NCBI GenBank assembly: GCA_001798855.1
Contig: MGQQ01000089.1
Coordinates: forward strand, 12,189 to 76,188
Direction: 5' to 3'
Origin: Deltaproteobacteria bacterium RBG_16_49_23
Lineage (GTDB): Bacteria > Desulfobacterota > BSN033 > UBA1163
DNA: 64,000 bases
The notes beneath the pieces are model-generated. The model was not told the origin of the DNA, made no database searches, and worked only from the letters and a program-made list of their open reading frames with translations. Positions 17,455-39,565 of this stretch are shown one piece after another. Made by a program: the position numbers and the translations under genes. Each line of letters opens with the position of its first letter. The first letter of the stretch is position 1.

Positions 17455-17455
17455 A

Positions 17456-21379: not shown

Positions 21380-22048
21380 CTAAAAATTTAAGAACAATTC
21401 CTGGGTCACTTCCTGACCCGGTTTTATGATAATAAAATCCTCATTCCACCATCCTCGAAGCATCTTCTCAAAAAATGCTAACGATCCTGCCATCTCTTCA
21501 TACCTGAGATGAAGAAACCGGGCGTTCTCCCTGGCATGTTCCCGATGGGTTTCTGATAAATCAGTCCCCACATCCACCAGGGCGATTCTCGTATAGTTCT
21601 TCAATTCCTCCTTGATCGCCCATTCCGCAGTCTCCTGACCGTAGCGTTGGCAGTATTCCTTGTAGATTCCAAGCGGAGATTTTCCTTCCTCTATCCATCC
21701 TTTGGTGAGATAGTAGGTTCCTGGCTCTTTTTTTTGTTCTTCCATATATCTGTTACAGGACCCGAGGAAAAGAGCGATGCAATCATGGACCTTTGGAATA
21801 ACCATGGGATGCCGGTTGGCCTTGACACCTAATATCCCGTTACTACAAAGTCCATAGCTTAAAATAATATAATCTAATTCCTGCTCTGCAGCCCTATCGA
21901 TCTCTTCCTGAATAATCGGCTTCATCTTTTGAGGAGTCCGATGAAGGGATTGTTCTAGAAAAACGAAAGAGATTCCGTTGGTCTGGAAACGGAGGATCTC
22001 ATCTTTCATGATGTTGCAGGCAATTACGAGGTATTTTGTGTTTGCCAT
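21380..22048 (-). CDS. DUF1638-family protein (corrinoid-system associated)
   Basis: IAC, LHRTP, YGLCSNG, DCIALFLG, YYLTKGW. Confidence 0.82.
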   Translation of the reverse strand: MANTKYLVIACNIMKDEILRFQTNGISFVFLEQSLHRTPQKMKPIIQEEIDRAAEQELDYIILSYGLCSNGILGVKANRHPMVIPKVHDCIALFLGSCNRYMEEQKKEPGTYYLTKGWIEEGKSPLGIYKEYCQRYGQETAEWAIKEELKNYTRIALVDVGTDLSETHREHARENARFLHLRYEEMAGSLAFFEKMLRGWWNEDFIIIKPGQEVTQELFLNF

Positions 22049-22081
22049 CTGCTATCAGCTATAAGCTACCTGCTAAGAAAT

Positions 22082-22888
22082 TTATTCCAATCTTCCTTCC
22101 CTAAATCCGGCAATATATTGCATACAGAATTCATCTTTTCCGGCGATCGTGAGGGCCGCTTTGAGCGCTCCGAAAAGCTGTTTGTCCGTTGGGTCTAAAA
22201 TAACGGAATCCAAACCACGGCCAATAGCGGCTACAAGAAAGGCCCGATTCACAAGCTTCCGGTTGGGCAGACCGTAAGACACATTGGTGAGACCGCAGGT
22301 CGTATGAACGCCTGGGAACTCTTTCATGATTGTCTCAATAGCATCCAACGTTGCTAACGCTGACCGGTCATCGGTCGCAAGAGGATAGACGAGGGGATCG
22401 ATGTACAGGTGATCCAGGGGAACACCCGAAGCTTCCACCTTTTTCACGAGTTGCCCGGCCATTTTCACCTTTGCTTCGGCTGTATCTGCGATAGAGTCCC
22501 CTGATTGACAGAGACCAATGACCTTTGCCTTGTGTTCAGCCACCAACGGGAGAATGCCTTCCAAACGGGAAGCTTCCAGGGTGATGGAATTAATCATAGG
22601 AGTTTTCTTCACCAACGGAATCATCGCTTTGATCACCGCCGGATCCGGACTGTCAATGGAGAGGGGAAGATCTACGGCTTCCTGGATGGTCTCAATAACC
22701 CACTGGAGATGCTTCGCCTCCTCACCGACAAAAGTCCCCGCATTGGCATCAATATAATCAGCGCCGGCCGCGGCCTGTATTTTTGCCTCATTCCGAATAA
22801 AAGCTGCATTCCTGGAGGAAATAGCATCGGCAATAGACTTTCGAGAAGCGTTGATTCGTTCACCGATGATCAGCATGGGGCCTTTCAC
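22082..22888 (-). CDS. Methyltetrahydrofolate:corrinoid methyltransferase (AcsE/MT2-like, pterin-binding)
   Basis: IIGERINASRK, PLSIDSPD, INSI, IDPLV, CGLTNVSYGLP. Confidence 0.9.
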   Translation of the reverse strand: MKGPMLIIGERINASRKSIADAISSRNAAFIRNEAKIQAAAGADYIDANAGTFVGEEAKHLQWVIETIQEAVDLPLSIDSPDPAVIKAMIPLVKKTPMINSITLEASRLEGILPLVAEHKAKVIGLCQSGDSIADTAEAKVKMAGQLVKKVEASGVPLDHLYIDPLVYPLATDDRSALATLDAIETIMKEFPGVHTTCGLTNVSYGLPNRKLVNRAFLVAAIGRGLDSVILDPTDKQLFGALKAALTIAGKDEFCMQYIAGFREGRLE

Positions 22889-23000
22889 AAAGTGAGTTAC
22901 AGGATCGCTCTACGCTTAAGGTTGGAGGAGCGCTTCGCTTGAGGTAAAATCTTTTACCTCTATCCTCAAGTTCTGCTGCGGCAGAACGATCCTCAAACCT

Positions 23001-24110
23001 CTAACGATTTTCACCTTTGTCCAATGGATACTTCCCGTATTTCTTGATGGCATGGGCCATCGCCCAGACATTTTCAGTCTTGCAATAATCTGTCAGGCTG
23101 TTCGCACTCGTGACGATATAGCCCCCTCCAGGTCCTGCCGCGGCAATCCTTTCCCTGACCTCCTTATCCACTTCATCTGGAGTCCCTAAGGTAAGGGTAT
23201 AATCGAGATCAATATTGCCCAGAATGCAAACCCGATTCCCATATCTTTCCTTTATTTGTTTGATGTCCATAGCGGAAGGCTGGATAGGGTGAAGACCGTT
23301 CATCCCCAATGTCAGCAGATCATCTAAAATGGGCAGGAGGTTTCCATCGCTATGGAAAACCCAGGGTTTCTTAATCGCCTGGGCCACAATTTTTTGGTAC
23401 GGGAGAAAAAATTCCTGGTACTGTTCACGACTCATCCAGGTTGATTTCGTATCGGCATGGTCATCATTAACCCAATAATAATCAAAATCCATCCGGTTCA
23501 GATGTTCCACCACTTTCGCCGACCATTCCGAAAACCTTCGATGAATCTCTTTGATCAGACCCGGGTTGTCATAAACATTATAGGCAAACTCCACAATGCC
23601 CATGCTCTCTAACATCGAAGCAGATCCCAAGCGGATTCTGGCAAAAACGGCGTAATCCCCTTTGAATTGGGCAATCCATTTAGACACCTGCTCGTAACGA
23701 GCCGGATGATCCGGATCAGGAAGATATTCTTCGAAGAGTTTTAATGAGTCATTGGAGGTGAGCAGGCCCCGCTTAACAAATGTCCGGCCTGTTTCGGGGA
23801 TGACCCCCATCTCTGCAATCCAGGGAGGGACAAAATCAAATGTGATTTTTTTCGGGTAATAATAACTCTCCTTAAAACCCACAGCAGCCTGCATGGCCTG
23901 GCCTGCAGTGGCTTGCCCCCCCATCGGGAAGTGATAACCGAAGCCGTCCATTCCGAGTTTATCGCAGAGCTGACCCGGAGTAAATTCGGTCGTCTCCATG
24001 ATCCTCGCCTGGAGCCCCTCCTCAATATCATTCTCTATCCATGGAACCCGGTCTGGAACCCCTCTTTTTAATGCGGTCAAAATCCTATCCCTCGGTTTCA
24101 TCCCCTTCAT
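23001..24110 (-). CDS. Uroporphyrinogen decarboxylase/MtaA-family protein (probable substrate-specific methyltransferase)
   Basis: PRDRILTAL...PDRVP, HSDGN, LHPIQP, GNID, GGGYIV, ENVWAM. Confidence 0.82.
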   Translation of the reverse strand: MKGMKPRDRILTALKRGVPDRVPWIENDIEEGLQARIMETTEFTPGQLCDKLGMDGFGYHFPMGGQATAGQAMQAAVGFKESYYYPKKITFDFVPPWIAEMGVIPETGRTFVKRGLLTSNDSLKLFEEYLPDPDHPARYEQVSKWIAQFKGDYAVFARIRLGSASMLESMGIVEFAYNVYDNPGLIKEIHRRFSEWSAKVVEHLNRMDFDYYWVNDDHADTKSTWMSREQYQEFFLPYQKIVAQAIKKPWVFHSDGNLLPILDDLLTLGMNGLHPIQPSAMDIKQIKERYGNRVCILGNIDLDYTLTLGTPDEVDKEVRERIAAAGPGGGYIVTSANSLTDYCKTENVWAMAHAIKKYGKYPLDKGENR

Positions 24111-24138
24111 AAATCCCTCCTCCTCAGGAGTTGACTCT

Positions 24139-24780
24139 TCAAATCAATGTATTACACTTGATCACCGCTGCGCGGGCATCCTTTCCATAAAAGTCCGCCC
24201 CGATTTGGTCCGCAAATTTCTGAGTAAGAGGCGCTCCTCCGACTCCTATCTTAACTTTCTCTCTTACCCCGGCCTTTTTAAAAGTCCAAATCGTTTCATC
24301 CATCATCGACATGGTTAAGGTAATGAGCGCAGACATCAGAACAAACTTGGGCTGATGTTGGTGAATGGCCTCGATAAATTTCTCCGGCGCGACATCAATT
24401 CCTAAATCGATCACCTCATAACCTGCGCCCTGGAGAACCATGGAGACAATGTTCTTCCCGACATCATGAATGTCGCCTTTGACGGACCCGATCACCACTT
24501 TGCCCTTGCCCAATGCCCCTTGCGCTGTAAGCATGGGACGGAGGATATCCAGGCCAATGTTCATCGCTCTTGCGGCAATCATCATCTCCGGCAGGAAGAT
24601 CTCGTTTCGAGAATATTGATCTCCCACCACATCCATGGCCGGAATCATGACATCATTCATGATCGCCTCAGGATTTAAACCATCGAACAAAAGTTTACGG
24701 ACCAATGGTTCGACCGCATCCCGTTTCCCTTTGATGATGGCTTGTTGAAGCTCCTCTTTCAGGGTTGTTATCTCAGGCAT
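24139..24780 (-). CDS. Corrinoid (B12-binding) protein
   Basis: GDIHDVGKNIV (DxHxxG), SAL, GGAP; start refined to MPEITT after GGAGG. Confidence 0.92.
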   Translation of the reverse strand: MPEITTLKEELQQAIIKGKRDAVEPLVRKLLFDGLNPEAIMNDVMIPAMDVVGDQYSRNEIFLPEMMIAARAMNIGLDILRPMLTAQGALGKGKVVIGSVKGDIHDVGKNIVSMVLQGAGYEVIDLGIDVAPEKFIEAIHQHQPKFVLMSALITLTMSMMDETIWTFKKAGVREKVKIGVGGAPLTQKFADQIGADFYGKDARAAVIKCNTLI

Positions 24781-24900: not shown

Positions 24901-25611
24901 TTACGTTGCTCCTGCGACAATCTTCAGGACAGCTTTATCCTTCATCAGCCCTTCAGGTTTTCCCGAGAAGATGATCTCCCCTCTTTCAATGACATAAAGC
25001 CTGTCTGTAAAATCGGGAACATGATAAATGTTCGATTCAGCGAGGAGGATGGAGTGACCCATTTTAGCAATCTCATGGATACTCTCTGCGATCTGCGGGA
25101 TGATGGCCGGTGAGAGCCCTTCGAAGGATTCATCGAGCAATAGCATATGAGGATCCATGGCCAACGCTCTTGCGATCGAGAGCATTTTCCTCTCCCCACC
25201 ACTGATCTGTGTCCCCTTTCTCGCCTTATACCTCTCCAGGGGTGGAAATACAGAATAAGCGAGCCGGACCCTCTCTTCTGCGGAACGCGAGGTTTTTCGG
25301 GTCCAGGTCGCGATCTCAATATTTTCTAAGGTGGTTAAATCGGCAAATATTTCACTTTCTTCCGGAGCAAAGCCTATTCCCAAAAGAGCAATCTCGTGAG
25401 GAAAAAACTCGGTAATCTCTTTTCCCATGAACTTGATGCTGCCGGACTCGGGTTTAAGAAATCCCATAATGCTCCTGAGAGTAGTGGTCTTGCCTGCCCC
25501 ATTCCTTCCGATGAGACAGACGACTTCTTTCTCCCCCACCTCGATATTCACATTTTGCAGGATATGGCTGGCCTTGATAAAAACATTGATGTCTTTTAAT
25601 TCGAGCATCAT
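24901..25611 (-). CDS. Liv-type ABC transporter ATPase (LivF-like)
   Basis: GRNGAGKTT, ISGGE, LLLDE. Confidence 0.9.
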   Translation of the reverse strand: MMLELKDINVFIKASHILQNVNIEVGEKEVVCLIGRNGAGKTTTLRSIMGFLKPESGSIKFMGKEITEFFPHEIALLGIGFAPEESEIFADLTTLENIEIATWTRKTSRSAEERVRLAYSVFPPLERYKARKGTQISGGERKMLSIARALAMDPHMLLLDESFEGLSPAIIPQIAESIHEIAKMGHSILLAESNIYHVPDFTDRLYVIERGEIIFSGKPEGLMKDKAVLKIVAGAT

Positions 25612-26417
25612 GCTTTACCGCCCTTTCCGGTATGTTCATGCATCAGGGCGCTGAAAATCTTGAAACATTCCTTTTGCCCTAAGACGGTGCAAACCACTTC
25701 TTCATTCTTCTCGATTTCTCCCGGGGCGCTATCCGATAAGATCTTCCCCTGGTGTAAGGCGATGATGCGATCCGAAAAGGAGAAAACGATATCCATATCA
25801 TGCTCCACTTGAATGATCGATTTGATCCCGATCTTTTTCGAAGCCGATACAAGGGTTTCCATAATCTTGTTCTTATCGCTGGTGCTCACGCCACTCGTGG
25901 GTTCATCCAGCAAAATAACCTCGGGGTGAAGGGCAAAAGCGGAGGCGACATCGAGCATCTTTTTGTCGCCCTGAGGTAAATTCTTTGTTAGCACATCTCT
26001 CTTTCCAACTAATCCAAAGAGCATTGCCACCTCCAACGCCTCACTCGTCACCTTCTGGTCTCGGAGAAGTGAGGAGTAGAAGTTGGTTCCTTTCCCCAAT
26101 CGTGAAACCACAGCGACCATTAAGAACTCAAGGACGGTAAAATTTGGGAAAATATTGACCAGTTGAAAACTCCGGGCAACCCCCAGTTTTGAAAGCTTTT
26201 CAGGACCGATTCCGGTAATCTCTTTATCCTTGTAAAAAACTTTCCCCGTATTCGGTGTAAGCAATCCGGTCAAGACATTGATTAATGTGGTCTTGCCCGC
26301 CCCATTCGGTCCAATGATGGACACAAACTCCCCTTCATTAATCTTAAAGCTTACCCCATCCAGGGCACAGAACTCTCCATAATATTTACGAAGATCACTC
26401 GCAGAGAGAATCACCAT
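25608..26417 (-). CDS. Liv-type ABC transporter ATPase (LivG-like)
   Basis: GPNGAGKTT, ARSFQ, LLDEP, EHDM. Confidence 0.9.
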   Translation of the reverse strand: MVILSASDLRKYYGEFCALDGVSFKINEGEFVSIIGPNGAGKTTLINVLTGLLTPNTGKVFYKDKEITGIGPEKLSKLGVARSFQLVNIFPNFTVLEFLMVAVVSRLGKGTNFYSSLLRDQKVTSEALEVAMLFGLVGKRDVLTKNLPQGDKKMLDVASAFALHPEVILLDEPTSGVSTSDKNKIMETLVSASKKIGIKSIIQVEHDMDIVFSFSDRIIALHQGKILSDSAPGEIEKNEEVVCTVLGQKECFKIFSALMHEHTGKGGKA

Positions 26418-26427
26418 CTCTATCTCC

Positions 26428-27420
26428 TCATTCGCCGCCTTTCTCTTTTTTCACCAGAGAGCTGATCACTCCAGCAATACCACCCGGCGCAACGATAACG
26501 AGAAAGGCCAAAATGGCCCCAAAGATAAACCTCCAATAAGTCGTGAGAGACATAACCTTGTCTTGAAGGAAAATATAGACGACACCGCCGATCAAGGGGC
26601 CAAAAAAGTTTTCGAAACCTCCGAGGAGGGTCATAAACACGAGTGTTCCAGAGTGTGTCCAGTAAGTCAGCCCAGGATCCACTTGGCCGATGGCAGGAGC
26701 CAATAACGCTCCTCCGATCGCAGCATAGGCTCCGGATATAATAAAGGCATACCATCTGTATCTCTTTACGCTCACCCCCAGATATTCAGCTTTCTCAGGG
26801 TTGTCCCTGATCGCCTTCAGGCAGAGCCCGAACGGTGATGAGACGATCTTCCACATGACGAAGGTAAGGATCGCTAAAATAACAAGAGTATAGATATAAT
26901 AGCTTCTTGTGAGGTACTGCATTTTTGGAATCTCAGAAAGGTTAAACCCCAGGAGATAAGGCCTTAAAACTCGCATTCCTTCGTCGCCCCCGGTCAGATA
27001 ATAGAACTTCAGCAAGAACGTGTAGAAGAGCATCCCAAAGGCGAGGGTAAGCATTGCAAAGTAAATTTTGATGTATCGCACACAGATGGCCCCGATCAAT
27101 GCAGCCAGAATAGAAGAGATGATGACCGCAACAACAAGTATGACTTCCATATAAAGAATAGAAAATTTGCCTGTGAGGAAAGCGGCTGTATAAGCTCCAA
27201 TCGCCATAAAAAAAGCATGGCCAAAGGAGAGGAGGCCGGTGTATCCAAAGAGAAGATTAAGACCAAGCACCATGACGGCATAGGCGAAAAAAGTTAACAT
27301 TAGATAACTGACATATTGGCTGGCGAACAGGGGTAACCCTAAAAACAGTAGACCGACAACGATGAGGATCAATACTTTCGTGCTCTTGAGAGACAAGATC
27401 TCCTGCCATGGTTTCATCAA
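26428..27420 (-). CDS. Liv-type ABC permease (LivM-like)
   Basis: GYTGLLSFGHA, YFAMLTLAF, TGGDEG, AIRDN. Confidence 0.9.
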   Translation of the reverse strand: MMKPWQEILSLKSTKVLILIVVGLLFLGLPLFASQYVSYLMLTFFAYAVMVLGLNLLFGYTGLLSFGHAFFMAIGAYTAAFLTGKFSILYMEVILVVAVIISSILAALIGAICVRYIKIYFAMLTLAFGMLFYTFLLKFYYLTGGDEGMRVLRPYLLGFNLSEIPKMQYLTRSYYIYTLVILAILTFVMWKIVSSPFGLCLKAIRDNPEKAEYLGVSVKRYRWYAFIISGAYAAIGGALLAPAIGQVDPGLTYWTHSGTLVFMTLLGGFENFFGPLIGGVVYIFLQDKVMSLTTYWRFIFGAILAFLVIVAPGGIAGVISSLVKKEKGGE

Positions 27421-28301
27421 ACTTTACTCCCTCCGAATAACCCTTGCGGCTTAATCACTAGAACAGCAATCACGATGATATAGATGGTGAGCATTTCCAA
27501 TTCTGGATAAGTGGAAATGGCGACCGATTTTAACACGCCTACGATCAGAGCGCCGATAAAGGCTCCCTTCATGCTTCCGAGGCCGCCAATGACCACCACG
27601 GCAAAAGCTAACACGATAAGTTCTACACCCATTTCTGAAACAACCGCGGTGGCAGGAATCACCAGAGCGCCGCCAAGAGTTCCAAGCACCGTTCCGAGTG
27701 TGAAAACTTTAATGTAAACCATCTTCATATTGATCCCGAGGGCTTCACCCATCTCTTTTTTGTCCGCCGTCGCTCGAATAATCCTGCCGAACTTTGTGTT
27801 CAAAAGAATGTAACCGATCAGGGCGGCAATGATTAAGCTGCATAAGATGACAATGAGGTTGTAAACGGGTAACGTGGCCCCGAATAGATTGATCCGACCG
27901 TAAATCAGGTCAATTCCTCCTGTGGTTTGTGGGGAGGTTCCCCAAATAAACTTGATGACATCCTCGATCATCATTACGAGCGCAAAGGTTAATAGGAGTT
28001 GAAAAGTTTCATCCCGGTCGTAAACAAACTTGATCAGTCCTCGTTCGACAATAGGACCGATAAATCCCAGCAATAATCCAGCCCCAATCAATGGAACGAT
28101 AAAAAGTGGCTTGGGAAAACCTCCAGCAACAAAACTCTTTACTACCACGATGCCAAAATACGCCCCGAGGGCATAGAAGCTGCCACAGGCCAAATTAAAT
28201 ACTTTCTGGACACCGAAAACGACCTGAAGCCCTGCAGCAACTAAAAAAAGCGTCGAGGCATTAAAAACGCCGCTGAAAATTATACTGACAATGGTTTCCA
28301 T
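27417..28301 (-). CDS. Liv-type ABC permease (LivH-like)
   Basis: LVAAGL...FNLA, FAVVVIGGLGS, KPQGLFG. Confidence 0.9.
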   Translation of the reverse strand: METIVSIIFSGVFNASTLFLVAAGLQVVFGVQKVFNLACGSFYALGAYFGIVVVKSFVAGGFPKPLFIVPLIGAGLLLGFIGPIVERGLIKFVYDRDETFQLLLTFALVMMIEDVIKFIWGTSPQTTGGIDLIYGRINLFGATLPVYNLIVILCSLIIAALIGYILLNTKFGRIIRATADKKEMGEALGINMKMVYIKVFTLGTVLGTLGGALVIPATAVVSEMGVELIVLAFAVVVIGGLGSMKGAFIGALIVGVLKSVAISTYPELEMLTIYIIVIAVLVIKPQGLFGGSKV

Positions 28302-28363: not shown

Positions 28364-29659
28364 TTACGACTTCCAACCCTTAATCCATTCGTATAACTTT
28401 GTTTCCGCAGTGGGTTTAATGATCTGTGAAGGGGTGAGGACCTCCACCGGATCAATCGTCACAAAGTCATAGGGGTTCTTGTGAGTGGTAATCCCCATAA
28501 AAAAATTGCAGGTCATAATGTTGTCCTCCCTGTATCCGCGATATCCGGACAGAGAAGGAACCTGGATGCCGCTCAGGGCTTTTCCAACCTCTTCCTTGGT
28601 CGGCCATTTTCCCAAAATCGAATAACACTTCTCAACGGCCGTCTTGTAAGCCTGAAGGACAAAATAGGCGTGATCGCATTCATAGACAGGATATTCCTTA
28701 TATTTATCAAAGTACGTTTTTACAAATTTTGTAAGCAATGGCCAGGTGTCCGTCCATTTGAAATACATGCTGTTATATCCGAGGATGAGCCCTTCCGGAG
28801 TAAATTCTTTCTTGAGGGTATAGTGGACTCCGCCTCCTGTTGTAAAACAGCCTTTCGTGGTCTTGAAAAGGCCTACAGCCGCTGCCTGCTTCATTAAAAT
28901 GGGGACATCTCCTGACCAAAAACTGGTCATGATTAAATCCGGTTTCGCCTTTTTAAGGGCGGCGATGTGAGAAGTAAAATCTGTTTCGCCAAGCTTCGGC
29001 CATAGGGCCTCCACGGCCTTCACATTCGGATGGAAGTGTTTCAGGACGGCTTGAAAGGATTCCCAGCAATCTCGGCCATAGGAATAATCGTTATTGATGC
29101 CCGCGATGGTCTTGATCTTAGGAAAATACTTGGCTGTCAGGATCGCCCCTCCAATTGCTTCCGCTTCGTTATCGATGCTTTTAAAAGCAAATTTCGTCTT
29201 GGGCATGGTCTCTTCAACGCCTTTTTGGGTTGTGCCATCCCAGGCAAGCCACAATTGACCTAACTCCTCAGCCAGAGGACCAACGGCAAGTCCGTTTCCG
29301 GTAGACATGAGACCGACAATCACGTCAACCTTCTTCTCCAGGGTAAGTTTTTTAAATCTCTCTACGCACTCTTTGGCGGTCGTTTCCTCCTCCATGTGGA
29401 GCTCAACTTTCCTTCCTAAGATTCCGCCCGACGCATTGACCTCGTCTGCCCAGATCTGGGTCGTACGCCAGGCGGCTGTGCCGGGAACTCCGATCACACC
29501 CGTTAAACCGGGCATGACTCCAATCCTTATCGGCTCTGAAGGCGCCCCTTTTGCAGGTATGGTCTGCGCGCTTGCTCTGCCCTTGCCTGCAAGAATAACT
29601 CCTGCACCCAGGGCAGCCCCACCCACCAACTTCACAAATTCACGTCGGGTCTTTTCCAT
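28364..29659 (-). CDS. Liv-type ABC substrate-binding protein with Tat signal
   Basis: TRREFVK; VNASGGILGRKVE, DYSYG, PKLGETDF; start refined to MEKTRR. Confidence 0.88.
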   Translation of the reverse strand: MEKTRREFVKLVGGAALGAGVILAGKGRASAQTIPAKGAPSEPIRIGVMPGLTGVIGVPGTAAWRTTQIWADEVNASGGILGRKVELHMEEETTAKECVERFKKLTLEKKVDVIVGLMSTGNGLAVGPLAEELGQLWLAWDGTTQKGVEETMPKTKFAFKSIDNEAEAIGGAILTAKYFPKIKTIAGINNDYSYGRDCWESFQAVLKHFHPNVKAVEALWPKLGETDFTSHIAALKKAKPDLIMTSFWSGDVPILMKQAAAVGLFKTTKGCFTTGGGVHYTLKKEFTPEGLILGYNSMYFKWTDTWPLLTKFVKTYFDKYKEYPVYECDHAYFVLQAYKTAVEKCYSILGKWPTKEEVGKALSGIQVPSLSGYRGYREDNIMTCNFFMGITTHKNPYDFVTIDPVEVLTPSQIIKPTAETKLYEWIKGWKS

Positions 29660-32409: not shown

Positions 32410-32588
32410 ATAAATCTCCTCGAATATTACAATTCGGAAAAACAATAACCAATCACCAAATTCCAAGCTCGAACATAATAACACCTCCCAACCCCCTCTT
32501 AACTTAAGAGGGGGAGTTATTGTTTGAAATTTAGCGTTTGGTTATTTTTCCATTATTTAACGCATTCGCATTACCATCCATGATTGTA

Positions 32589-33974
32589 TTACGCTTGAAC
32601 TTCCGGCAAGATCTTTCCGGGGTTACAGATATCTTCCGGATCGAAAGCCTTCTTCACCTTTCTCATTGCGGCAATATCCTGAGGGGAGAAGATAAAGAAC
32701 ATCTCCTTCATCTTCTCCGTGCCAATCCCATGCTCCCCGCTTATGGTCCCGCCTGCATCGGCGCATAATTTCATGATCTCGGAGCCTGCCAGATGCACCT
32801 TCCTCAGCTCCTCCTCGTCCCTTTCGTCAAAGAGGATGAGGGGATGGAGATTTCCATCTCCCGCATGAAAGACATTCGCGATGGTAAGGCCATACTTCTT
32901 GCTCACCTCCATTACCTGGACCAACACCTCGGGTAGTTTGGTCCTCGGCACCGTTCCATCACAGACAAGATAGTTGGGACGAAGTCTCGAAAGGGCGCCG
33001 AATGCCCCTTTCCGGCCTGCCCAGAGCTGTGTTCTTTCGGCCTCCGTCTTGGCGGATTTTACCTCACGGGCGTTATTCTTCCTGCAGATCTCCATGATTC
33101 GTTCCGCCAGCCTCTCCATCCCGTCTTTGAGCCCATCGATCTCGATGAGAAGAACAGCTTCTGCGTCGAGAGGAAAACCCGCATGGACCGATTCCTCAAC
33201 CGCCTTGATCGTCAGTTTATCGAGGATTTCGAGCGTAGCCGGAACGATTCCATCGGCAATGATGGCAGAGACCGTTCTGCCTGCATCCTCCAGAGAATTG
33301 TAGATGGCCAGCATCGTTTTAACCGCTTCGGATTTGGGCATGATCCGGAGAGTTAATTGAGTGGCGATTCCCAGCGTCCCTTCTGAACCCACCAGGAGCC
33401 CTGTCAGATCATATCCGGGATTATCCAGCGCTTTGCCACCGACCTGAATCACCTCGCCATCCGGAAGAACAACCTCAGCTCCCAGGATGTGGTTCGTCGT
33501 CACACCGTATTTGAGACAGTGAGGACCTCCCGAATTCTCTGCAAAATTTCCTCCGAAGGTGGAGACCTTCTCACTTGCAGGGTCCGGTTGATAGACAAAT
33601 CCATATCGGGCCAACTGATTTTTTAAAGCAAGGGTGAACAGGCCCGGTTCAACTACAGCCCTCTGATTTTCGATATCGATCTCGAGAATCTTGTTCATCC
33701 TGGAAAAGTGAAGGATAATCCCGCCCCGGGTGGGAATCGTCCCGCCGCTCAGATTCGTTCCAGAACCTCTTGCAATGACAGGAATGTGCTCACGGTGGCA
33801 GAACTTGACGATTTGAGAAACCTCTTCCGTTGAACCCGGAAACAGAATGCAATCGGGTTTTGCCTTAAAAAGGGAGGCATCATACCCATAGAGGAACAGG
33901 TCTGTCTCCGAGGAAAGCACATTCTCTTTTCCGACGATCTTCGATAACTCTTCAACCATTCTCTCGCGTTCCAT
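32589..33974 (-). CDS. glcD: GlcD-like FAD-linked glycolate dehydrogenase subunit
   Basis: RGSGTNLSGG, ENSGGPHCLKYGVT, GSEGTLG, HAGDGNLHP, GEHGIG. Confidence 0.85.
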   Translation of the reverse strand: MERERMVEELSKIVGKENVLSSETDLFLYGYDASLFKAKPDCILFPGSTEEVSQIVKFCHREHIPVIARGSGTNLSGGTIPTRGGIILHFSRMNKILEIDIENQRAVVEPGLFTLALKNQLARYGFVYQPDPASEKVSTFGGNFAENSGGPHCLKYGVTTNHILGAEVVLPDGEVIQVGGKALDNPGYDLTGLLVGSEGTLGIATQLTLRIMPKSEAVKTMLAIYNSLEDAGRTVSAIIADGIVPATLEILDKLTIKAVEESVHAGFPLDAEAVLLIEIDGLKDGMERLAERIMEICRKNNAREVKSAKTEAERTQLWAGRKGAFGALSRLRPNYLVCDGTVPRTKLPEVLVQVMEVSKKYGLTIANVFHAGDGNLHPLILFDERDEEELRKVHLAGSEIMKLCADAGGTISGEHGIGTEKMKEMFFIFSPQDIAAMRKVKKAFDPEDICNPGKILPEVQA

Positions 33975-34050
33975 GGATCCTCCTTCAATCAAGGCTAAAG
34001 CCTTGAGTTACAGACTTCGTCTTTCTGTAACTCAACCCTTTAGGGTTGAT

Positions 34051-34962
34051 TCAATTTCCGAATCGGTCACCCACCTTCACGCCAACCGATTGGGTAAATT
34101 CAATCGGTCCCATTTTCTCGCCTTTATCCACCCTCAACTTGCCAACGGTGATTATCCCCCCTTGAACAGCAATTTCAATGCCTCCCCTTTCAATGGCCAC
34201 AACTTGTCCTGCCCCCTCTTTTGCCGGCAGACTCTTTTTTCTTGTATCGTAGAATCTGATTCTTTTTCCTCTATACATTATAAAAGCCCCTGGCTGGGGA
34301 TCACAACCCCTTATCAAATTATAAACCTCATTAACCGGTTTTGAAGAATCAATGGAGGCAACCCGATCATCACAGGGAGGTTCGTAGGTGGCTTTCGATT
34401 CATCCTGAGGAACCCTTGGAGCAACGCCCTGTTTGATCAGATTGACCGCTTCGGTCATAGCCTCGATGCCCATGGGAAAGAGGGTATTGAAGTAGAGGGA
34501 CCCCGTCGTTTCATCAGGGCCAATTTCTACTTTTTTTTGGAGCAGAATGGGACCCGTATCGATCCCCCTGTCCGCCCAGAAGATTGTTAAACCGGTGCGG
34601 GTGTCTCCCTGGATAATGGCCCAGTTGACGGCGCTGGCTCCCCGATGCCGTGGTAATAGTGAAGGATGGTAGCAGATCGTTCCAAGGGAGGGAATATTCA
34701 GGATCTTCTCCGGGATGATATCCGTCACAAAGGCAAGTATGGCAAGATCGGGCTTCAATGCAAGATAATCGTCATAGACCTGAGGATTTTTCATCAGAGC
34801 AGGACGGAAGGCAGGAATCCCCGTCTTTTGAGCAAGAGAGGCTATCGGTTCTCCCCTCTTATCCGGAGGGGAGAAGATTCCCACCACTTCCTCTCCCTTT
34901 TGAGTCAACGATTCCAGTGCTTTTTCACCGAAAGGGCCCTGACCAACAATGATGATTCTCAT
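34051..34962 (-). CDS. Formyltransferase-fold protein resembling the hydrolase domain of 10-formyl-THF dehydrogenase
   Basis: IVGQGPFG, YHPSLLPRHRGASAVNW, IFWADRGIDTG, LYFNTLFPMG, ATYEP. Confidence 0.75.
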   Translation of the reverse strand: MRIIIVGQGPFGEKALESLTQKGEEVVGIFSPPDKRGEPIASLAQKTGIPAFRPALMKNPQVYDDYLALKPDLAILAFVTDIIPEKILNIPSLGTICYHPSLLPRHRGASAVNWAIIQGDTRTGLTIFWADRGIDTGPILLQKKVEIGPDETTGSLYFNTLFPMGIEAMTEAVNLIKQGVAPRVPQDESKATYEPPCDDRVASIDSSKPVNEVYNLIRGCDPQPGAFIMYRGKRIRFYDTRKKSLPAKEGAGQVVAIERGGIEIAVQGGIITVGKLRVDKGEKMGPIEFTQSVGVKVGDRFGN

Positions 34963-34985
34963 TGCTCATCCTTATTAAAATGAAG

Positions 34986-35126
34986 GTATCAATTTAGTTG
35001 TTTGAAATCCTCTTGTAAAATCCCTCCCAACCTCCCTTTGGCAAAGGGAGGAGAAAAATTTCCCCCCTTTGCCAAAGGGGGATGAAGGGGGATTAGATCA
35101 GTTTCTTCAAAGCACTAAAGTGTTGT
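34986..35126. mobile_element. Family B MITE, empty (insert-free) copy
   Basis: GTATCAATTTAG...CTAAAGTGTT ends; two internal hairpins. Confidence 0.75.
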
Positions 35127-35191
35127 AGATTAAGAAGGGAAAGGCTCATCAGACTTGGGTGGGTCGAAGGTGGGAGATGAGCTTTGCCCTT

Positions 35192-35335
35192 CTAGTGTAG
35201 TGCCTCAATAACGGCTTTACAATGATTTGAAAGCTGTCATTCCCGCGAAAGCGGGAATCCAGATTGAAAACACTGGATTCCGGATCAAGTCCAGAATGAC
35301 AACATTGTTAAGTCATTGCTGATACACCACACTAG
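35192..35335. mobile_element. MITE-like element (CTAGTG...CACTAG) enclosing a GTCATTCCCGCGAAAGCGGGAATCCAG REP pair
   Basis: Imperfect long TIR; related REP cores at ~38056-38172 and ~40322-40449. Confidence 0.65.
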
Positions 35336-35349
35336 CATCTTATAAAGTT

Positions 35350-36249
35350 TTATTTCTTTCTTTTGGCATCAAAGGCGGCGATCTCATCTACGGTGGCAAG
35401 GATCGTCCTTGCATTATCATAGACCGGGGTATCCACCATCTTCCCCAGATAGGAGACGGCGGCCGCGCCCTTTGCAATTCCCTCTTCCTCAAAGACCTTT
35501 ACCACCCCTTTCGCCCATTCCACATCCTCCGGCGCCGGAGTGTAGATTCGATGGGCCGGCTCGATCTGGCTGGGATGAATGAGCATTCTTCCCTCATATC
35601 CCAACTGCCGGCCGAAGCGGGTGTTCTTCTCAAAGGCTTCCGTATCTTTAAAGGCTACGAAGGGACAGTCAATGGCAATGCAACCCGCTGCCCTGGCAGC
35701 GACAGCGTTATGAGCCCGTGCATAGAATTGCTCGTCCCCCTCGGTGGTGAGTTTCACCCTCATGTCTTTCGTATAATCCACGGCGCCAAAGATAAGGGAG
35801 CTGACCCGCTTGCTCGCAGTGGCTGATGGATAGGCATTGATAACGCCTTTGGCTGTTTCAATAAGAAGCTGAATCGCAATGCTTCCAACCTTCAACCCTC
35901 TTCTTCGCTCTAATTCCTCCAGTTTCCAGTCGAGACGCTGGACATGATCCGCACCACCCGTCTTGGCCAGACAGACCCCAGAAAGCCCCTCATAGACGAT
36001 GGCCTCCAGGTCATCGTTCGTCATCAAGGTCTCCCAGTTATTGATCCTTACATAGATTGTGGACCCTCCCGATCCGGCGAATTTCAGGTTCTCCCGGACC
36101 ATCTCGCGAGCCCTTGCCTTCTCGGCCGGCGGGACAGAGTCTTCCAGGTCGAGCGTGATAATATCGGCCGGTGTCTCAGGGGCCTTCGAAACCATTTTCT
36201 CATTGTTTCCCGGAATGTAAAACACAGATCGCATGACAGTCATAACCAC
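35350..36249 (-). CDS. CitE/malyl-CoA lyase family CoA-ester lyase
   Basis: RSVFYIPGN, DLEDSV, YVRIN, IETAKG, FGAVDY, IHPSQI, GKMVD. Confidence 0.9.
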   Translation of the reverse strand: MVMTVMRSVFYIPGNNEKMVSKAPETPADIITLDLEDSVPPAEKARAREMVRENLKFAGSGGSTIYVRINNWETLMTNDDLEAIVYEGLSGVCLAKTGGADHVQRLDWKLEELERRRGLKVGSIAIQLLIETAKGVINAYPSATASKRVSSLIFGAVDYTKDMRVKLTTEGDEQFYARAHNAVAARAAGCIAIDCPFVAFKDTEAFEKNTRFGRQLGYEGRMLIHPSQIEPAHRIYTPAPEDVEWAKGVVKVFEEEGIAKGAAAVSYLGKMVDTPVYDNARTILATVDEIAAFDAKRKK

Positions 36250-36377
36250 ACCTCCTCTTTAATTTTGGCTATTCTATAGAATTCGAATCCAAACTCGAAG
36301 TAGCCAATCGTGAGGCGTAAAGGGTTAGGGGTAAGGTGTAAACCCCTTCCGCCTAACGACTCCCGCCTTACGTCATT

Positions 36378-37274
36378 TCAGCTTTTCAGCAATTTTTTGA
36401 GGGTTGGGGCGATTTCATCGGGCCGGTCGACCACATGGACTCCGGCCTCCTTCAGGGATTTGATTTTGTCTTTGGCCGACCCCTTCCCTCTTTCGATGAT
36501 GCTGCTCGCATGGGAGAACCGCATTCCCTCCGGGGCCCAGGCGCCAGCGACATAGACCACAAGGGGCTTTGTGAATTTCTTCGTCCTTACCGCCTCGGCT
36601 GCCTCCTCTTCGTAGGGACCTCCGATTTCCCCGAAGACGGCAACAGCCTTTGTATCCGGATCAGCTTCAAAAAGAGGCAGGAGGTCGCCCATGGACTGCC
36701 CCAGAACCGGCTCTGTTCCGATATGGACAACCGTGGTCACACCAAGGCCGGCCTGCTGAATGGCCCACGGCACCGTGCCGGACTGCCCGCCACTTCTCGA
36801 AATGACGCCTATGGGGCCTGGCACGAAGACCTTCTTTGCAAACTCCGGCGTCCCTCCGAGCCAGCCCGCGGCTGCAATTCCGGGGCTGATAATGCCAATC
36901 GATCCTGGCCCTAACAACCGTGCGCCCTTCTGTTTCCCATAGGCCATCATCTCAAGGATGTCATAAAGAGGAACGCGTTCCACAGGCATGACAATGAACT
37001 TAATGCCGGAATCCAGCGCTTCGAGAACCGCATCCCTCAGACCCGGACCGGGAACAAAGGTCACGCTTGCATCAATTGGACCTTTCGCCCGAACGGCCTC
37101 TTCAACCGTGTTAAAGACAGGGATTCCCGTTACTTCTTCTCCCCCTCTTCCAGGTGTCACTCCTGCCACCACCTTCGTCCCGTAACCTTTCATAAAGGCG
37201 GCCCGCACTGAGCCTTCCCTTCCGGTAATCCCCTGAACTAAAATCGTCGTATTCTTTTCAAGTAGAATCGCCAT
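36378..37274 (-). CDS. ADP-forming acid-CoA ligase alpha subunit (SucD/MtkB/CcsB family)
   Basis: [29 protein letters not shown] phospho-His; start refined to MAILLEK. Confidence 0.88.
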
Positions 37275-37310
37275 CTCCCATATCCTCCTAATATCCCCCC
37301 TCACCCTCTC

Positions 37311-37473
37311 CCTCTCCCCCAAGGGAGAGGGGTTTAAGAGGTTTCCCTCTCCCCCAAGGGAGAGGGGTTTAAGGGGTTTCCCTCTCCCCCAAAGGAGAGG
37401 GGTTTAAGGGGTTTCCCTCTCCCCCAAAGGAGAGGGGTTTAAAGGGTTCCCCTCTCCCCGCTGGGGAGAGGGG
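37311..37473. repeat. Tandem array of ~35-bp hairpin units (4-5 copies)
   Basis: CCCTCTCCCCCAA(G/A)GGAGAGGGGTTTAAGGGGTTT repeated head to tail, no spacers. Confidence 0.9.
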
Positions 37474-37556
37474 AAAGGTGAAGGAAAATTTTAAATATTT
37501 TTGTTAAGATCCCAAATTTTTCATTTTTCAATTTGAAATTTGAAATCTGAAATTTG

Positions 37557-37730
37557 GTATCACTTTAGCTGTTTGAAAATTTCCTTGCAAAATCCCTCCC
37601 GACCTCCCTTTGCCAAGGGAGGAGATAAGGGTTTCCCCCTTTGGAAAAGGGGGATTAAGGGGGATTTTATGATGATTCTTTTGACCAATTGACTCATGAA
37701 ACTCTTCTTTTCATAAGGCTAAAGTGATAC
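37557..37730. mobile_element. Family B MITE inserted in a GAAATTT heptamer tract
   Basis: GTATCACTTTAGC ... GCTAAAGTGATAC TIR; GAAATTTG on both flanks. Confidence 0.75.
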
Positions 37731-37741
37731 GAAATTTGAAA

Positions 37742-38026
37742 TTATAATACTCCATGTTTCCTTTTATATTCTTCCAACCCGGGAATCGGGGCTTCAATCG
37801 TAATCGCTTTGTTCCCCCTGAACCAGCATTCATACTCGCAGGCTAAACACTCTGTCCCAATACGCTGGGCGAATTCGGCGTCTCCTCCCAGGGCGGGCTT
37901 CCCATCCTTCAACACCAAAATACCCCGGTCAAAAAGTTTGCATCCGGCAACGCAGGCGTGGGTCGTGCAGCCGGCGCATTTGCTCTCGTCGATAACCACC
38001 TTGATTGTCCTCTCTTCAAAATGCAT
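37742..38026 (-). CDS. Small atypical ferredoxin-like protein
   Basis: IDESKCAGCTTHACVAGC and ECLACEYEC; AGGAGG RBS. Confidence 0.8.
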   Translation of the reverse strand: MHFEERTIKVVIDESKCAGCTTHACVAGCKLFDRGILVLKDGKPALGGDAEFAQRIGTECLACEYECWFRGNKAITIEAPIPGLEEYKRKHGVL

Positions 38027-38205
38027 AAACCTTCCTCCTTAATGATCTAAGAGTTGTCATTCACGCCCCGTATCAGGTACGGGGTAAACTCCAGCGGGAA
38101 TCCAGACCTCGTCTCTGCGAAAGCAGGGATCTTTCTTCGAAAAGACTGGATTCCGGATCAAGTCCGGAATGGCAAGATTTGTAAAATCATTTCTGAGACA
38201 GTAGT

Positions 38206-39465
38206 TTAGCCCTTTATCTCTCTTTTCTTCCGATATTCATCGATGAGGGCTCTCATGCGTTTTGCAAGAAACTCCGTCTCGTAGACTTTCTCGCTTCCAT
38301 AGATTTCGATCGGGTTCTGACCCAGCAAGTCCGTTGTCCCCTCCTTCAGAATCTCCATGGATTCCTTTTCCTTATTCCCGCAGAGTAGAATCACACTGGG
38401 AAATCCGGGTCTCTTGGGGAGCTCCTCCCTCAGGGCCTTCACGACCCCATGAGCATGGTGCCACTGTTCCTGGTTTGCGACAATAAAGCCGCCGAGCATA
38501 TATCCTTCAATATCCGGCTGGGAAAGAATCACCTTCGCAGCCCGGTAAACTTTCGCGGCCGTTGGATTGCCGCTCGTATCGGCATAGTTGGCGATTTTCA
38601 AACCCTGCCGGTTCAAGGCATCCACTCCGAGAATGGCGCCTCCTCCCCCGATTCCATGGTAACCCACATAACCCGGTCCCTTTTTATCCGGCGCCATCTG
38701 GGCGATGTAACAGGTTCCCCGGAGATCGCCTTCCTCAATCCACCATGCAATCCGGTCGAACTCGGTGGGAGGCGTGGGGGCTTCGCGAGCGACGTCGATG
38801 CCCAGCTCGGGGTGGCGAAATACGGAAGAGTCATCAATGGAGATTCGGCAATCCGCAGCAAGTATCTTCCCGGCCTTCGTCAACACAAGAGGGTTGATCT
38901 CTGCCGTCCGGCAATTGTATCCCTTAAATGTCTGGTACAAACCCATGATGGCTTGGGCAATGGAAGGAAGCACCCGGGTAGGAACCTTCAATGCCACACA
39001 AAGGTTGAGAGCATCATATAGACGAAAGCCGCGGAGAACGTCCACGGTCACCCGGGCAATCTTTTCCGAATCCACCGATTCGATGTCCATTCCCCCTTCC
39101 GTGCTGAACATCACCACCGGGGCTCTCGCCTCTTTTGAAGCATCGATGATGACGCCGACGTAGTATTCCTTTTCAATATCTAACTTCTCCTCCACCAGTA
39201 CCTTTTCTACCTTCAGATTCTTGATTTCCATCCCCAGGAGCTGGTTTGCAGTGATCTCTGCATCGAGAGGATGTTCAGCAAACTTAATCCCTCCTGCCTT
39301 TCCACGGCCCCCGGCCCAAACCTGCGATTTGATCACCACGGGTTTCCCTATCTTCTCAGCAATCTTCTTCGCCTCCTGGGGAGTGGCGGCCACTTCCCCC
39401 TGCGGGACCGGCACCTTCGCCGCCTTGAGCAGCTGTTTCCCCTGATATTCATACAATCGAGCCAT
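38206..39465 (-). CDS. ADP-forming acid-CoA ligase beta subunit (ATP-grasp; SucC/MtkA/CcsA family)
   Basis: LYEYQGK, KSQVWAGGRGKAGG, EGGMDIE, EINPL; C-domain GGGG...ANYADTSGNP. Confidence 0.88.
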   Translation of the reverse strand: MARLYEYQGKQLLKAAKVPVPQGEVAATPQEAKKIAEKIGKPVVIKSQVWAGGRGKAGGIKFAEHPLDAEITANQLLGMEIKNLKVEKVLVEEKLDIEKEYYVGVIIDASKEARAPVVMFSTEGGMDIESVDSEKIARVTVDVLRGFRLYDALNLCVALKVPTRVLPSIAQAIMGLYQTFKGYNCRTAEINPLVLTKAGKILAADCRISIDDSSVFRHPELGIDVAREAPTPPTEFDRIAWWIEEGDLRGTCYIAQMAPDKKGPGYVGYHGIGGGGAILGVDALNRQGLKIANYADTSGNPTAAKVYRAAKVILSQPDIEGYMLGGFIVANQEQWHHAHGVVKALREELPKRPGFPSVILLCGNKEKESMEILKEGTTDLLGQNPIEIYGSEKVYETEFLAKRMRALIDEYRKKREIKG

Positions 39466-39514
39466 AACGACCTCCCAATCTCTTCTTCAGCCTTTGGGGA
39501 TTAAAATTTTTTCT

Positions 39515-39565
39515 CTTATAACAAATGGCAAACGCCTTGTCAATAAAATTAAAATGGTAAGACCA
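39515..39565 (-). promoter_or_regulatory. Promoter TTGACA-17-TATAAG with upstream FadR-family box TGGTAAGACCA (39555-39565)
   Basis: Matches the PdhR/LldR-type TGGTnnnACCA consensus; same core recurs before the regulator gene. Confidence 0.72.

Follow-up and report, generated by a model that had tools for sequence, protein, structure and literature searches.

A 64,000-nucleotide window of the genome of Deltaproteobacteria bacterium RBG_16_49_23 (GCA_001798855.1, contig MGQQ01000089.1, positions 12,189–76,188 of the forward strand; GTDB lineage Bacteria; Desulfobacterota; BSN033; UBA1163) contains an 18-kb run of genes in which a corrinoid methyltransferase system with its own importer adjoins putative glycolate-oxidation genes and a coenzyme A (CoA) ligase–lyase pair. 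The run comprises 17 open reading frames (ORFs), all on the minus strand, reading from 39465 to 21380. Three modules can be recognized: M1 (39465–35350; ligase beta, a Cys-rich protein, ligase alpha and a CitE-type lyase), M2 (34962–29731; an Fmt-fold protein and GlcDEF) and M3 (29659–21380; a binding protein, four further ABC importer parts, a corrinoid protein, methyltransferases I and II, and a DUF1638 protein). The best explanation that we can offer is that M3, M2 and M1 serve one catabolic purpose in the source organism, to which we would assign a probability of roughly 40%. Judged by its protein families, M3 is securely a corrinoid demethylation-type system with a dedicated importer. The tie of GlcDEF to this importer–methyltransferase module is, judging by the gene content of relatives, non-random and recurrent though not obligatory; it is no conserved operon, and the whole block is a composite of three modules rather than one inherited unit.

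The run is flanked by plus-strand genes at 20480–21361 and 40635–41822, and profile searches gave Pfam matches for 16 of the 17 ORFs, which bears out the 18-kb co-directional arrangement described in the original prediction. With ATG 29659 and ATG 24780 as the starts of the binding-protein and corrinoid-protein genes, every gap from the Fmt-fold gene to the DUF1638 gene is at most 126 nt; M2 abuts M3, glcF and the binding-protein gene being separated by about 71 nt. These two modules plausibly form one transcript. The gaps within M1 are long (179 nt, about 470 nt to the likely ATG of the alpha gene, and 128 nt), 387 nt lie between M1 and M2, and M1 is possibly transcribed on its own.

The first gene of M3 (28364–29659; this and all other genes of the run are on the minus strand) encodes a substrate-binding protein (SBP) with a Peripla_BP_6 domain and an RR-x-F-L (twin-arginine) leader. 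We have kept the previously proposed start, ATG 29659, as the likely true one. Its best 120 homologues are 57–87% identical and about 431 residues long. Among solved structures the SBP is no closer to certain binders which we take to be specific for aromatic acids [E ~1e-6] than it is to LivJ. Two permeases (27417–28301 and 26428–27420; BPD_transp_2) and two ATPases (25608–26417 and 24901–25611; ABC_tran) complete the importer. The earlier description of a Liv-type transporter was right as to an ABC importer, but its five parts favour urea (Urt) over Liv models, the permeases and ATPases having UrtB, UrtC, UrtD and UrtE as their best NCBIfam matches, and all of these scores fall below cut-off.

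The corrinoid protein (24139–24780, with ATG 24780 as its likely start) consists of B12-binding_2 [PF02607] and B12-binding [PF02310] domains and carries the sequence DIHDVG, an instance of the DxHxxG motif. Methyltransferase I (23001–24110; 369 aa) belongs to the UroD superfamily, the URO-D match [PF01208, E 2.9e-21] covering residues 169–358 only. Its solved relatives are CdmB [2.7e-11, C-terminal 140 residues only] and MtaA [2.3e-7]. An alignment of the family showed invariant DD, HSDG, N, Y and NS residues and no invariant Cys, in agreement with a zinc-free enzyme of the CdmB/MtvB type. There were 661 homologues among 3049 candidates, and the best 120 are 62–88% identical. Those with names include Syntrophorhabdales, Deltaproteobacteria, Chloroflexi and Rhodospirillales metagenome-assembled genomes and, at 62–67% identity, Moorella naiadis, Thermanaeromonas toyohensis, Desulfosporosinus burensis and Desulfitobacterium hafniense. 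A plasmid collection yielded four weak partial matches to methyltransferase I, below 33% identity and with no usable context. The methyl-tetrahydrofolate (THF):corrinoid methyltransferase II (22082–22888; Pterin_bind) is the only protein of the run to exceed a curated NCBIfam cut-off [NF005719, 318.4 versus 259]. The last gene (21380–22048) specifies a DUF1638 protein [PF07796, 6.4e-45]. The proposal of a methyltransferase I/corrinoid protein/methyltransferase II system with a dedicated ABC importer is thus upheld by Pfam, NCBIfam, solved relatives and the DxHxxG motif. No activase was found in the window by tblastn with the RACo protein of a related locus (L002, below). The reductive activase is often encoded away from its methyltransferase system, and its absence nearby does not exclude membership.

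A genome scan with an SBP alignment, taking 10-kb flanks, matched 264 stretches, of which 243 encode relatives; the best 80 loci (L001–L080) were kept and searched by tblastn with 24 proteins from the window and 15 from the loci. In the five closest (L001–L005) the SBP is 70–83% identical to that of the window. Four of these, L002–L005, keep the SBP, the four ABC genes, the corrinoid protein, methyltransferase I (84–91%) and methyltransferase II in the same order, and L004 and L005 keep DUF1638 as well; L001 has the transporter and methyltransferase II only. On the evidence of these sequences M3 is a self-contained, conserved unit. What lies upstream of the SBP gene varies: a RACo-type activase in L002, a DUF155 gene on the opposite strand in L003, a second ABC transporter with a corrinoid protein and an MtaA-like system in L004, and unrelated genes in L001. 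A RACo-type activase accompanies the module in both L002 and L004. L005 has GlcD (87%), GlcE (68%) and GlcF (80%) in this place, after which come an ABC operon of opposite orientation and a gene with a PCC domain.

In a quick maximum-likelihood tree of 81 SBPs (the 80 loci and the window, with internal stops set to X in four rows), a branch whose SH-aLRT support is 100% divides the proteins into two sides. One holds the 12 methyltransferase-linked rows, including the window, together with L006 and L067; the other, the sister clade, holds 67 rows. DUF1638 stands beside the module in 6 of the 13 loci on the methyltransferase-linked side. GlcD/E/F-like genes occur within 10 kb of the SBP gene in L005, L012, L013 and L017, that is, in 4 of the 11 methyltransferase-bearing loci, and these with the window are spread over four subclades of that side; within the same distance they were found in none of the 67 sister-clade loci. 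Gene order differs among them, and in the more distant loci the SBP gene is accompanied by UroD-type methyltransferases other than that of the window. L013, L014 and L017 have methyltransferase II, the SBP and ABC genes, URO-D, corrinoid protein, URO-D and DUF1638, in L013 and L017 preceded by GlcD, GlcE-like, GlcF-like, sensor kinase and sigma-54 regulator genes; the sequence of L014 starts inside the sensor kinase gene. L012 reads SBP, DUF1638, URO-D, corrinoid protein, two ORFs without Pfam matches, GlcD-like and CCG protein. L007 and L008 possess a URO-D::B12 fusion and no glcDEF. The GlcF-like proteins of L012, L013 and L017 are 51–53% identical to that of the window (80% for L005), which is itself only 32% identical to its paralogue within the window (49274–50389). 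The proposed linkage of the methyltransferase genes to glcDEF thus recurs in 4 of 11 loci and in four subclades, but L002–L004 show no glcDEF in their 6.3, 2.0 and 10 kb of upstream sequence and L005 is interrupted, so that a lack of linkage in relatives, which would count against the original prediction, is seen in part.

Some of these loci deserve separate mention. In L004 two systems stand in tandem, the second (2940–9610, directly upstream of the M3-like module) having an SBP of 30% identity and a full-length MtaA/CmuA-family methyltransferase above its NCBIfam cut-off. The fusion of L007 (15008–16777) and L008 (Desulfarculaceae-labelled) is 589 aa long, and genes for a TRAP transporter and a GntR/FCD regulator come after it.

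Within M2, glcD, glcE and glcF are adjacent and in that order, with gaps of 104 and 126 nt. The GlcD-type FAD subunit (32589–33992; FAD_binding_4/FAD-oxidase_C) scores 543.6 bits against the 567.9 of TIGR00387, and a second GlcD paralogue in the window scores 503.6. The GlcE-like second FAD subunit (31045–32484; 479 aa) has FAD_binding_4 and FAD-oxidase_C domains [NF008439, 145.6 versus 284] and the GlcF-like iron-sulfur subunit (29731–30918) a 4Fe-4S dicluster and two CCG domains [NF008434, 103.2 versus 333]; neither qualifies as an equivalog, and the domain architecture of both fits. Ahead of them the Fmt-fold protein (34051–34962; 303 aa; Formyl_trans_N and Formyl_trans_C) has as its best solved relative the hydrolase domain of 10-formyl-THF dehydrogenase [1s3i_A, 1.5e-65, residues 1–244]. 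Both subdomains are present, and the YHPSLLPRHRGAS and GxDTG stretches, which we take to hold the catalytic His and Asp, are conserved between the two. It had been called formyl-THF hydrolase-like. An identity with PurU was tried and rejected [NF004684, 20.2 bits versus a cut-off of 223], while the homology to the 10-formyl-THF dehydrogenase domain gives the label another footing; the protein is a putative formyl-THF hydrolase, although its sequence would fit transfer of the formyl group as well.

The beta subunit of the M1 ligase (38206–39465; 419 aa) is an ATP-grasp protein of the succinyl-CoA synthetase family [ATP-grasp_2, 3.3e-56]. It also passes the Pfam cut-off for Citrate_bind (30.7 versus 26.8 bits), and its second solved relative is citryl-CoA synthetase [2.8e-42]. 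It scores below the cut-off of the model for the succinyl-CoA synthetase beta subunit [NF001913, 261.7 versus 370] and is no succinate–CoA ligase equivalog. The alpha subunit (36378–37274) has the Pfam domains CoA_binding and Ligase_CoA. Its ORF opens with TTG 37322, inside a 35-nt tandem repeat, and ATG 37274 is the likely start; it too falls short of an equivalog [NF004230, 285.5 versus 336, aligned from residue 17]. By its domains and scores the ligase is a member of the wider succinyl-CoA synthetase family only. Between the two subunit genes lies one for a 94-aa Cys-rich, ferredoxin-like protein (37742–38026) with seven Cys in CxxCx4Cx3C and CxxCx3C. Neither Pfam nor NCBIfam gave a match to it. 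Its nearest Atlas clusters, of about 94 aa and 63–91 members, bear the automatic name 4Fe-4S ferredoxin-type; the label ferredoxin, used previously, has the Cys motifs and this name in its favour, but no profile match. The CitE/HpcH-family acyl-CoA lyase (35350–36249; 299 aa) matches HpcH_HpaI over its full length [PF03328, 1.8e-41] and scores 213 against 443 for citE [TIGR01588], 141 against 375 for RipC and 84 against 500 for malyl-CoA lyase in NCBIfam. When the ligase beta sequence was used to query the plasmid collection, only matches below 35% identity were obtained, most of the annotated ones being succinate–CoA ligase beta subunits and none having usable context. A literature search, confined to titles and abstract openings among the matches listed, found nothing on this ligase/Cys-rich protein/lyase trio in Deltaproteobacteria under citryl-CoA synthetase or citE.

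On the favoured explanation, and for M3 by homology, the Tat-exported SBP and its ABC importer would take in a small methylated compound. The zinc-less UroD-type methyltransferase I would move the methyl group to the His-on corrinoid protein and the pterin-binding methyltransferase II would hand it to THF, with DUF1638 as an accessory, which the accessible portions of the literature cited below tie to corrinoid reactivation. In M2 the GlcDEF-type FAD/iron-sulfur dehydrogenase may oxidise the demethylated product, most simply glycolate to glyoxylate, and the formyl-THF-dehydrogenase-like hydrolase may free the oxidised methyl group as formate plus THF. The CitE-type lyase of M1 would join glyoxylate to acetyl-CoA and the succinyl-CoA-synthetase-like ligase would turn the C4 acyl-CoA into the free acid and ATP. 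M1 would then take the place that malate synthase has in the Escherichia coli glc operon, but with conservation of ATP, and an ATP-yielding malyl-CoA step is a reasonable inference from the families present. In favour of glyoxylate as the substrate of M1 we have counted a shared palindrome core, a glyoxylate-reductase-like gene and an LldR/GlcC-like regulator nearby (all described below). The simplest fit for the imported compound is an O-methyl 2-hydroxy acid such as methoxyacetate, which is a guess. In its most far-reaching form the proposal would make this the first locus to which anaerobic O-demethylation of aliphatic methyl ethers, namely methoxyacetate or a related O-methyl 2-hydroxy acid, can be traced. 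An uncharacterised but widely conserved clade of UroD-type methyltransferase I with an ABC importer of its own would carry it out, in one operon with GlcDEF and a stand-alone formyl-THF hydrolase that sets formate free, and beside the genes of the ATP-conserving malyl-CoA route; taken whole, we regard so complete a claim as improbable. As a pathway the original prediction is coherent and in part supported: its joining of M3 to GlcDEF is borne out, but a linkage of M1 and the Fmt-fold gene to M3 was not found within the sequence available for the 80 loci.

The individual parts can be compared with known systems. Three-component systems built around a methyltransferase I of UroD type are well established for chloromethane and for aromatic ethers; within the UroD superfamily CdmB has the aromatic O-demethylases MtvB, OdmB, VdmB and MtoB as its neighbours, and neither CdmB nor MtvB is reported to need zinc (PMC13222342, in the extracts available). 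The system in the window shares three components with MtvABC, OdmABCD, Mto and CdmBCA, a UroD-superfamily methyltransferase I, a pterin-binding methyltransferase II and a corrinoid protein made up of cap and B12-binding domain with the DxHxxG motif, and as in CdmB and MtvB the methyltransferase I is without zinc ligands. Unlike those systems, it has a methyltransferase I in a tight family of its own (62–88% identity across phyla among the best 120), and its genes lie together with those of DUF1638 and a five-part ABC importer, without an activase in the window. For DUF1638, the accessible parts of two sources (bioRxiv 10.1101/192971, PMC12478193) report that it is needed, with a RamA-like protein, for a split methionine synthase and that it is induced on methylated osmolytes, its role being undefined; Phaeobacter inhibens DUF1638 mutants are rescued by methionine (bioRxiv 10.1101/192971, same reservation). 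The window resembles the split methionine synthase sets of P. inhibens and Ruegeria pomeroyi in having DUF1638 beside a B12-binding protein and a pterin-binding methyltransferase, but the partner here is a UroD-type methyltransferase I with an importer, not a homocysteine methyltransferase.

The E. coli glycolate operon is glcDEFGBA, with GlcC as its regulator and malate synthase for the disposal of glyoxylate. Adjacent GlcD, GlcE and GlcF-type genes beside putative glyoxylate-disposal genes are common to both loci, as is a GntR/FCD regulator of the LldR/PdhR/GlcC group, here nearby and with a matching palindrome. The window differs in that its subunits score below the equivalog cut-offs, its GlcE-like protein is 479 aa long with a full C-terminal domain, a CitE-type lyase and an ADP-forming ligase stand in place of malate synthase, and there is no GlcG or GlcA. 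The adjacency of a succinyl-CoA-synthetase-type ligase and an HpcH/CitE-type lyase recalls MtkAB and Mcl of the serine cycle, but the beta subunit is far from the corresponding model (see below) and the 94-aa Cys-rich protein is encoded between the ligase subunits. The Fmt-fold protein is like the N-terminal hydrolase domain of ALDH1L1 over 244 residues; unlike ALDH1L1 it stands alone, without carrier and aldehyde-dehydrogenase domains.

The chemistry proposed for M1 and M2, from glycolate to glyoxylate, malyl-CoA and finally malate plus ATP, is that of a malyl-CoA pathway known from enzyme activities since the 1990s. Anaerobic degradation of glycolate or glyoxylate by this route is described for Syntrophobotulus glycolicus and Moorella sp. 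HUC22-1 (PMC8092247, PMC6313629, in the parts of each that were accessible, which name no genes for it), ATP synthesis being given in the title of the Moorella paper, and this portion of the original prediction stands as a reported anaerobic route. Among the papers listed, main text only, the literature yielded no gene-level work on anaerobic glycolate degradation via malyl-CoA and none on corrinoid-dependent or other demethylation of methoxyacetate; nothing of relevance came up under PDB code 8TG1. Two Acetobacterium strains are given as negative for methoxyacetate in the available text of PMC12062537. ATP-yielding malyl-CoA glycolate degradation and methoxyacetate demethylation are both known physiologies, so that to speak of an undescribed pathway was an overstatement, and what would be new is the gene assignment and the coupling only.

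Several observations weigh against a common purpose of the three modules. The ligase subunits, the Cys-rich ORF, the lyase and the Fmt-fold gene were found by tblastn in none of the 80 loci, in a search for which the sequence of L005 ends 60 nt before glcD and the contigs of L013 and L017 end at or within the glcDEF-like genes; what ties M1 and the Fmt-fold gene to M3 is their neighbouring position and the logic of the chemistry. Seven of the 11 methyltransferase-bearing loci (L001, L002, L003, L004, L007, L008 and L014) are without glcDEF, although L008 and L014 are uninformative; sequence extends for 10 kb in L001, L004 and L007, and in L002, L003 and L004, where methyltransferase I is 84–86% identical, glcDEF is missing from 6.3, 2.0 and 10 kb respectively. 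In L005 the inverted ABC operon splits glcDEF from the module, and co-transcription is not conserved. GlcD, GlcE and GlcF each score below the NCBIfam cut-off. Sequence counts suggest that M1 is present in many relatives which have no M3: all 120 matches listed for ligase beta are at least 81% identical, whereas an identity of 80% or more is reached among the matches listed by about 26 of methyltransferase I and 10 of the SBP, although the proteins compared may differ in their pace of evolution. The 387-nt gap between M1 and M2 is a possible transcription boundary. Mere juxtaposition is the main rival: M3 would be an ordinary ether demethylase, acting for example on methoxylated aromatic acids, and M1 plus M2 an independent glycolate or 2-hydroxy-acid locus. 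We consider this somewhat unlikely. It fits the varied neighbours of M3 (activase, second methyltransferase system or unrelated genes), and the nearest solved relative of methyltransferase I is the zinc-free CdmB, kin of the aromatic O-demethylases, as suits the want of a conserved Cys (available extracts of PMC13222342), but the match to CdmB is limited to the C-terminal 140 residues and the SBP leans no more to the presumed aromatic-acid binders than to LivJ. The names met among the homologues of methyltransferase I at 62–67% identity, those of Moorella, Thermanaeromonas, Desulfosporosinus and Desulfitobacterium, speak for it as well, these being demethylators of aromatic ethers. It must be set against the same-subtype GlcF and the GlcDEF-like genes in four subclades, as opposed to none in the sister clade, and against a glcF–SBP gap of only some 71 nt.

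The assignment of M1 is a matter of its own. The ligase and the lyase are of the families to which the malyl-CoA enzymes belong, but ligase beta misses the malate–CoA ligase beta model by a wide interval [NF010647, 178.8 bits versus 604], its best solved relative is 3ufx_B, deposited as a succinyl-CoA synthetase beta subunit [5.6e-69], and the lyase is about equally near to a CitE-like protein [1.7e-37], malyl-CoA lyase [1.9e-36] and CLYBL [8.8e-32]. M1 might then act on succinate, citrate, citramalate or itaconate-type acids and have nothing to do with the demethylase, either as a succinyl-CoA synthetase paralogue or in a two-step cleavage or synthesis of citrate or citramalate, which we hold to be unlikely. 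The Citrate_bind score, the order of the solved relatives (3ufx_B, then citryl-CoA synthetase) and citE as the top NCBIfam match of the lyase would agree with such a role, as would the promoter-like site of M1, its REP-filled gaps, the terminator-like hairpin that follows it and its absence from the related loci; yet all of the NCBIfam scores lie under curated cut-offs and so assign no specificity, M1 is directly upstream of glcDEF on the same strand, the glyoxylate-reductase-like gene and the LldR/GlcC-like regulator are near with a shared palindrome core, and the malyl-CoA route is the anaerobic fate of glyoxylate reported in the papers cited above. An onium or thioether donor resembling an amino acid (S-methylmethionine, a methylthio acid, betaine), with an indirect link to GlcDEF, seems to us distinctly improbable. 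It is brought to mind by the sister clade, where the transporter has at least one flanking core-MetE-like gene of the zinc type in 56 of 67 loci, HxC...DC being kept in both MetE-like proteins, a contrast that could resemble cobalamin-dependent versus cobalamin-independent methyl transfer; but the two SBP clades, split by the fully supported branch, may bind different ligands, methyltransferase I of the window has no Cys ligands to stabilise a thiolate, and the recurring GlcDEF genes are left unexplained. There is very little to commend the view that M3 runs in the opposite sense, methylating an imported acceptor from methyl-THF in the manner of a split methionine synthase. Parts of the same kinds as methyltransferase II, the corrinoid protein and DUF1638 do occur in the P. 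inhibens enzyme (bioRxiv 10.1101/192971, as far as available), whereas a high-affinity importer and dehydrogenase genes in the operon look catabolic and the nearest characterised relatives of methyltransferase I demethylate or dehalogenate. Nor does methyltransferase I have the zinc-thiolate ligands typical of thiol methyltransferases.

Which methylated compounds an anaerobe can channel into its one-carbon metabolism depends on its corrinoid methyltransferase systems, and for most methyltransferase I clades no substrate is known. The clade of the window is unusually conserved (62–88% among its best 120, in several phyla), and its dedicated SBP is a direct experimental handle on the substrate of methyltransferase I. 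The recurring GlcDEF neighbourhood narrows the donors to those yielding a 2-hydroxy acid on demethylation, and the ligase–lyase pair beside glcDEF offers concrete candidate genes for the ATP-yielding malyl-CoA pathway. Should the modules be neighbours and nothing else, what we have here is a demethylase of the usual kind placed next to a usual glycolate locus.

Upstream of the ligase beta gene a promoter-like TTGACA-17-TATAAG (39515–39543, minus strand) can be read from the sequence; it was not listed by the promoter scan, its second hexamer ending in G. Ten nt upstream of the -35 hexamer is a palindrome of the GntR/FadR-subfamily type, ATTGGTCTTACCATT (39553–39567, minus strand), with one mismatch to what we take to be the PdhR/LldR-type consensus. 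Matches to this consensus in the window (five) were no more numerous than expected by chance, 18 of 100 shuffles reaching five. The core of the palindrome has only two intergenic copies, at 39554 and 45142, and its count in the window was likewise not above chance (26 of 100 shuffles reached three). The second copy is 270 nt upstream of the glyoxylate-reductase-like gene (45424), and an LldR/PdhR/GlcC-like GntR regulator is encoded at 46773–47471. What had been described as a FadR box is thus a single GntR-type palindrome ahead of M1, of a kind whose matches are at chance level.

The gap between M1 and M2 (34963–35349; 387 nt) contains REP-like palindromes, a terminator-like hairpin followed by a T-run (35082–35062, minus strand) and a promoter-like TTTACA-17-TAAATT (35019–34991, minus strand). 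Neither promoter nor terminator counts exceeded those of shuffled sequence (20 versus 18.1 and 23 versus 26.3), and individual sites are leads only. A sigma-54 promoter pattern was rejected, since its 18 matches with at most two mismatches were fewer than the shuffle mean of 23 and none was usefully placed. REP-like G+C-rich palindromes (35005–35094, 35233–35311, 37274–37483, 37577–37666, 38054–38184, 39640–40110 and 40320–40416) fill the intergenic gaps of M1 and the divergent promoter region; among those at 37274–37483 are five 35-nt units in tandem. The search covered 33900–40700, and thus of M2 and M3 only the first part of M2, and reported no such element below 34963. An Rfam scan of the whole window gave no match at the gathering score, and there is thus no cobalamin or THF riboswitch in it at that score.

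The 67 sister-clade loci fall within L009–L080 and are mostly labelled Rokubacteria or Methylomirabilota. Corrinoid genes were found in none of them. Their transporter is flanked by two core-MetE-like genes, at least one being present in 56 of the 67; one is directly upstream in 34 of the 59 loci with at least 1.3 kb of upstream sequence, another downstream in 40 of the 44 with at least 3.5 kb downstream, and both proteins retain the zinc-type HxC...DC motif. Genes of the aconitase and PrpF families are found farther upstream in 30 of the 41 loci with at least 7 kb. The neighbouring genes were checked by Pfam in six of these loci. This hints, as far as gene content goes, that the wider transporter family may serve methyl-transfer enzymes in general; because the two SBP clades are cleanly separated, the sister clade says little about the ligand in the window. 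A relationship of methyltransferase I to the sister-clade MetE-like protein was considered and discarded, direct comparison giving a best E of 1.5 and no similarity. The conserved sister-clade set (for example L046, 3778–18146) also has a flanking alpha/beta hydrolase and an upstream acyl-CoA dehydrogenase; family and structure look-ups gave family-level names only for its members. In the Archaeoglobaceae-labelled L067 the genes that precede the SBP gene are of CoA-transferase, ADP-forming acyl-CoA synthetase and HAD type.

Divergent from the cluster, the plus-strand genes at 40635–50389 specify a DctPQM TRAP transporter, the glyoxylate-reductase-like 2-hydroxy-acid dehydrogenase (357 bits versus a cut-off of 455) and a further pair of a GlcD-like protein (45% identity with GlcD of the cluster) and a CCG protein (32% with GlcF), which from its sequence resembles a D-lactate or glycolate dehydrogenase of two subunits. 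In the genes for DctQ and DctM (42100–44350) G+C amounts to 58–66% as against about 49% elsewhere in the window, and DctM (642 aa) contains a Pro/Ala/Glu-rich insert at approximately residues 320–400. Converging on the cluster from the other side, an operon-like plus-strand run (16345–21361) encodes a 167-aa ORF, a 4Fe-4S protein, an enzyme of the aldehyde:ferredoxin-oxidoreductase type, a cytochrome-b561-like membrane protein and a DHDPS-family aldolase; the aldolase together with aldehyde oxidation could conceivably provide another route to glycolate. Farther downstream of the cluster the minus strand carries two genes for radical-SAM proteins and an ORF with a LeuA dimer domain (11051–13005).

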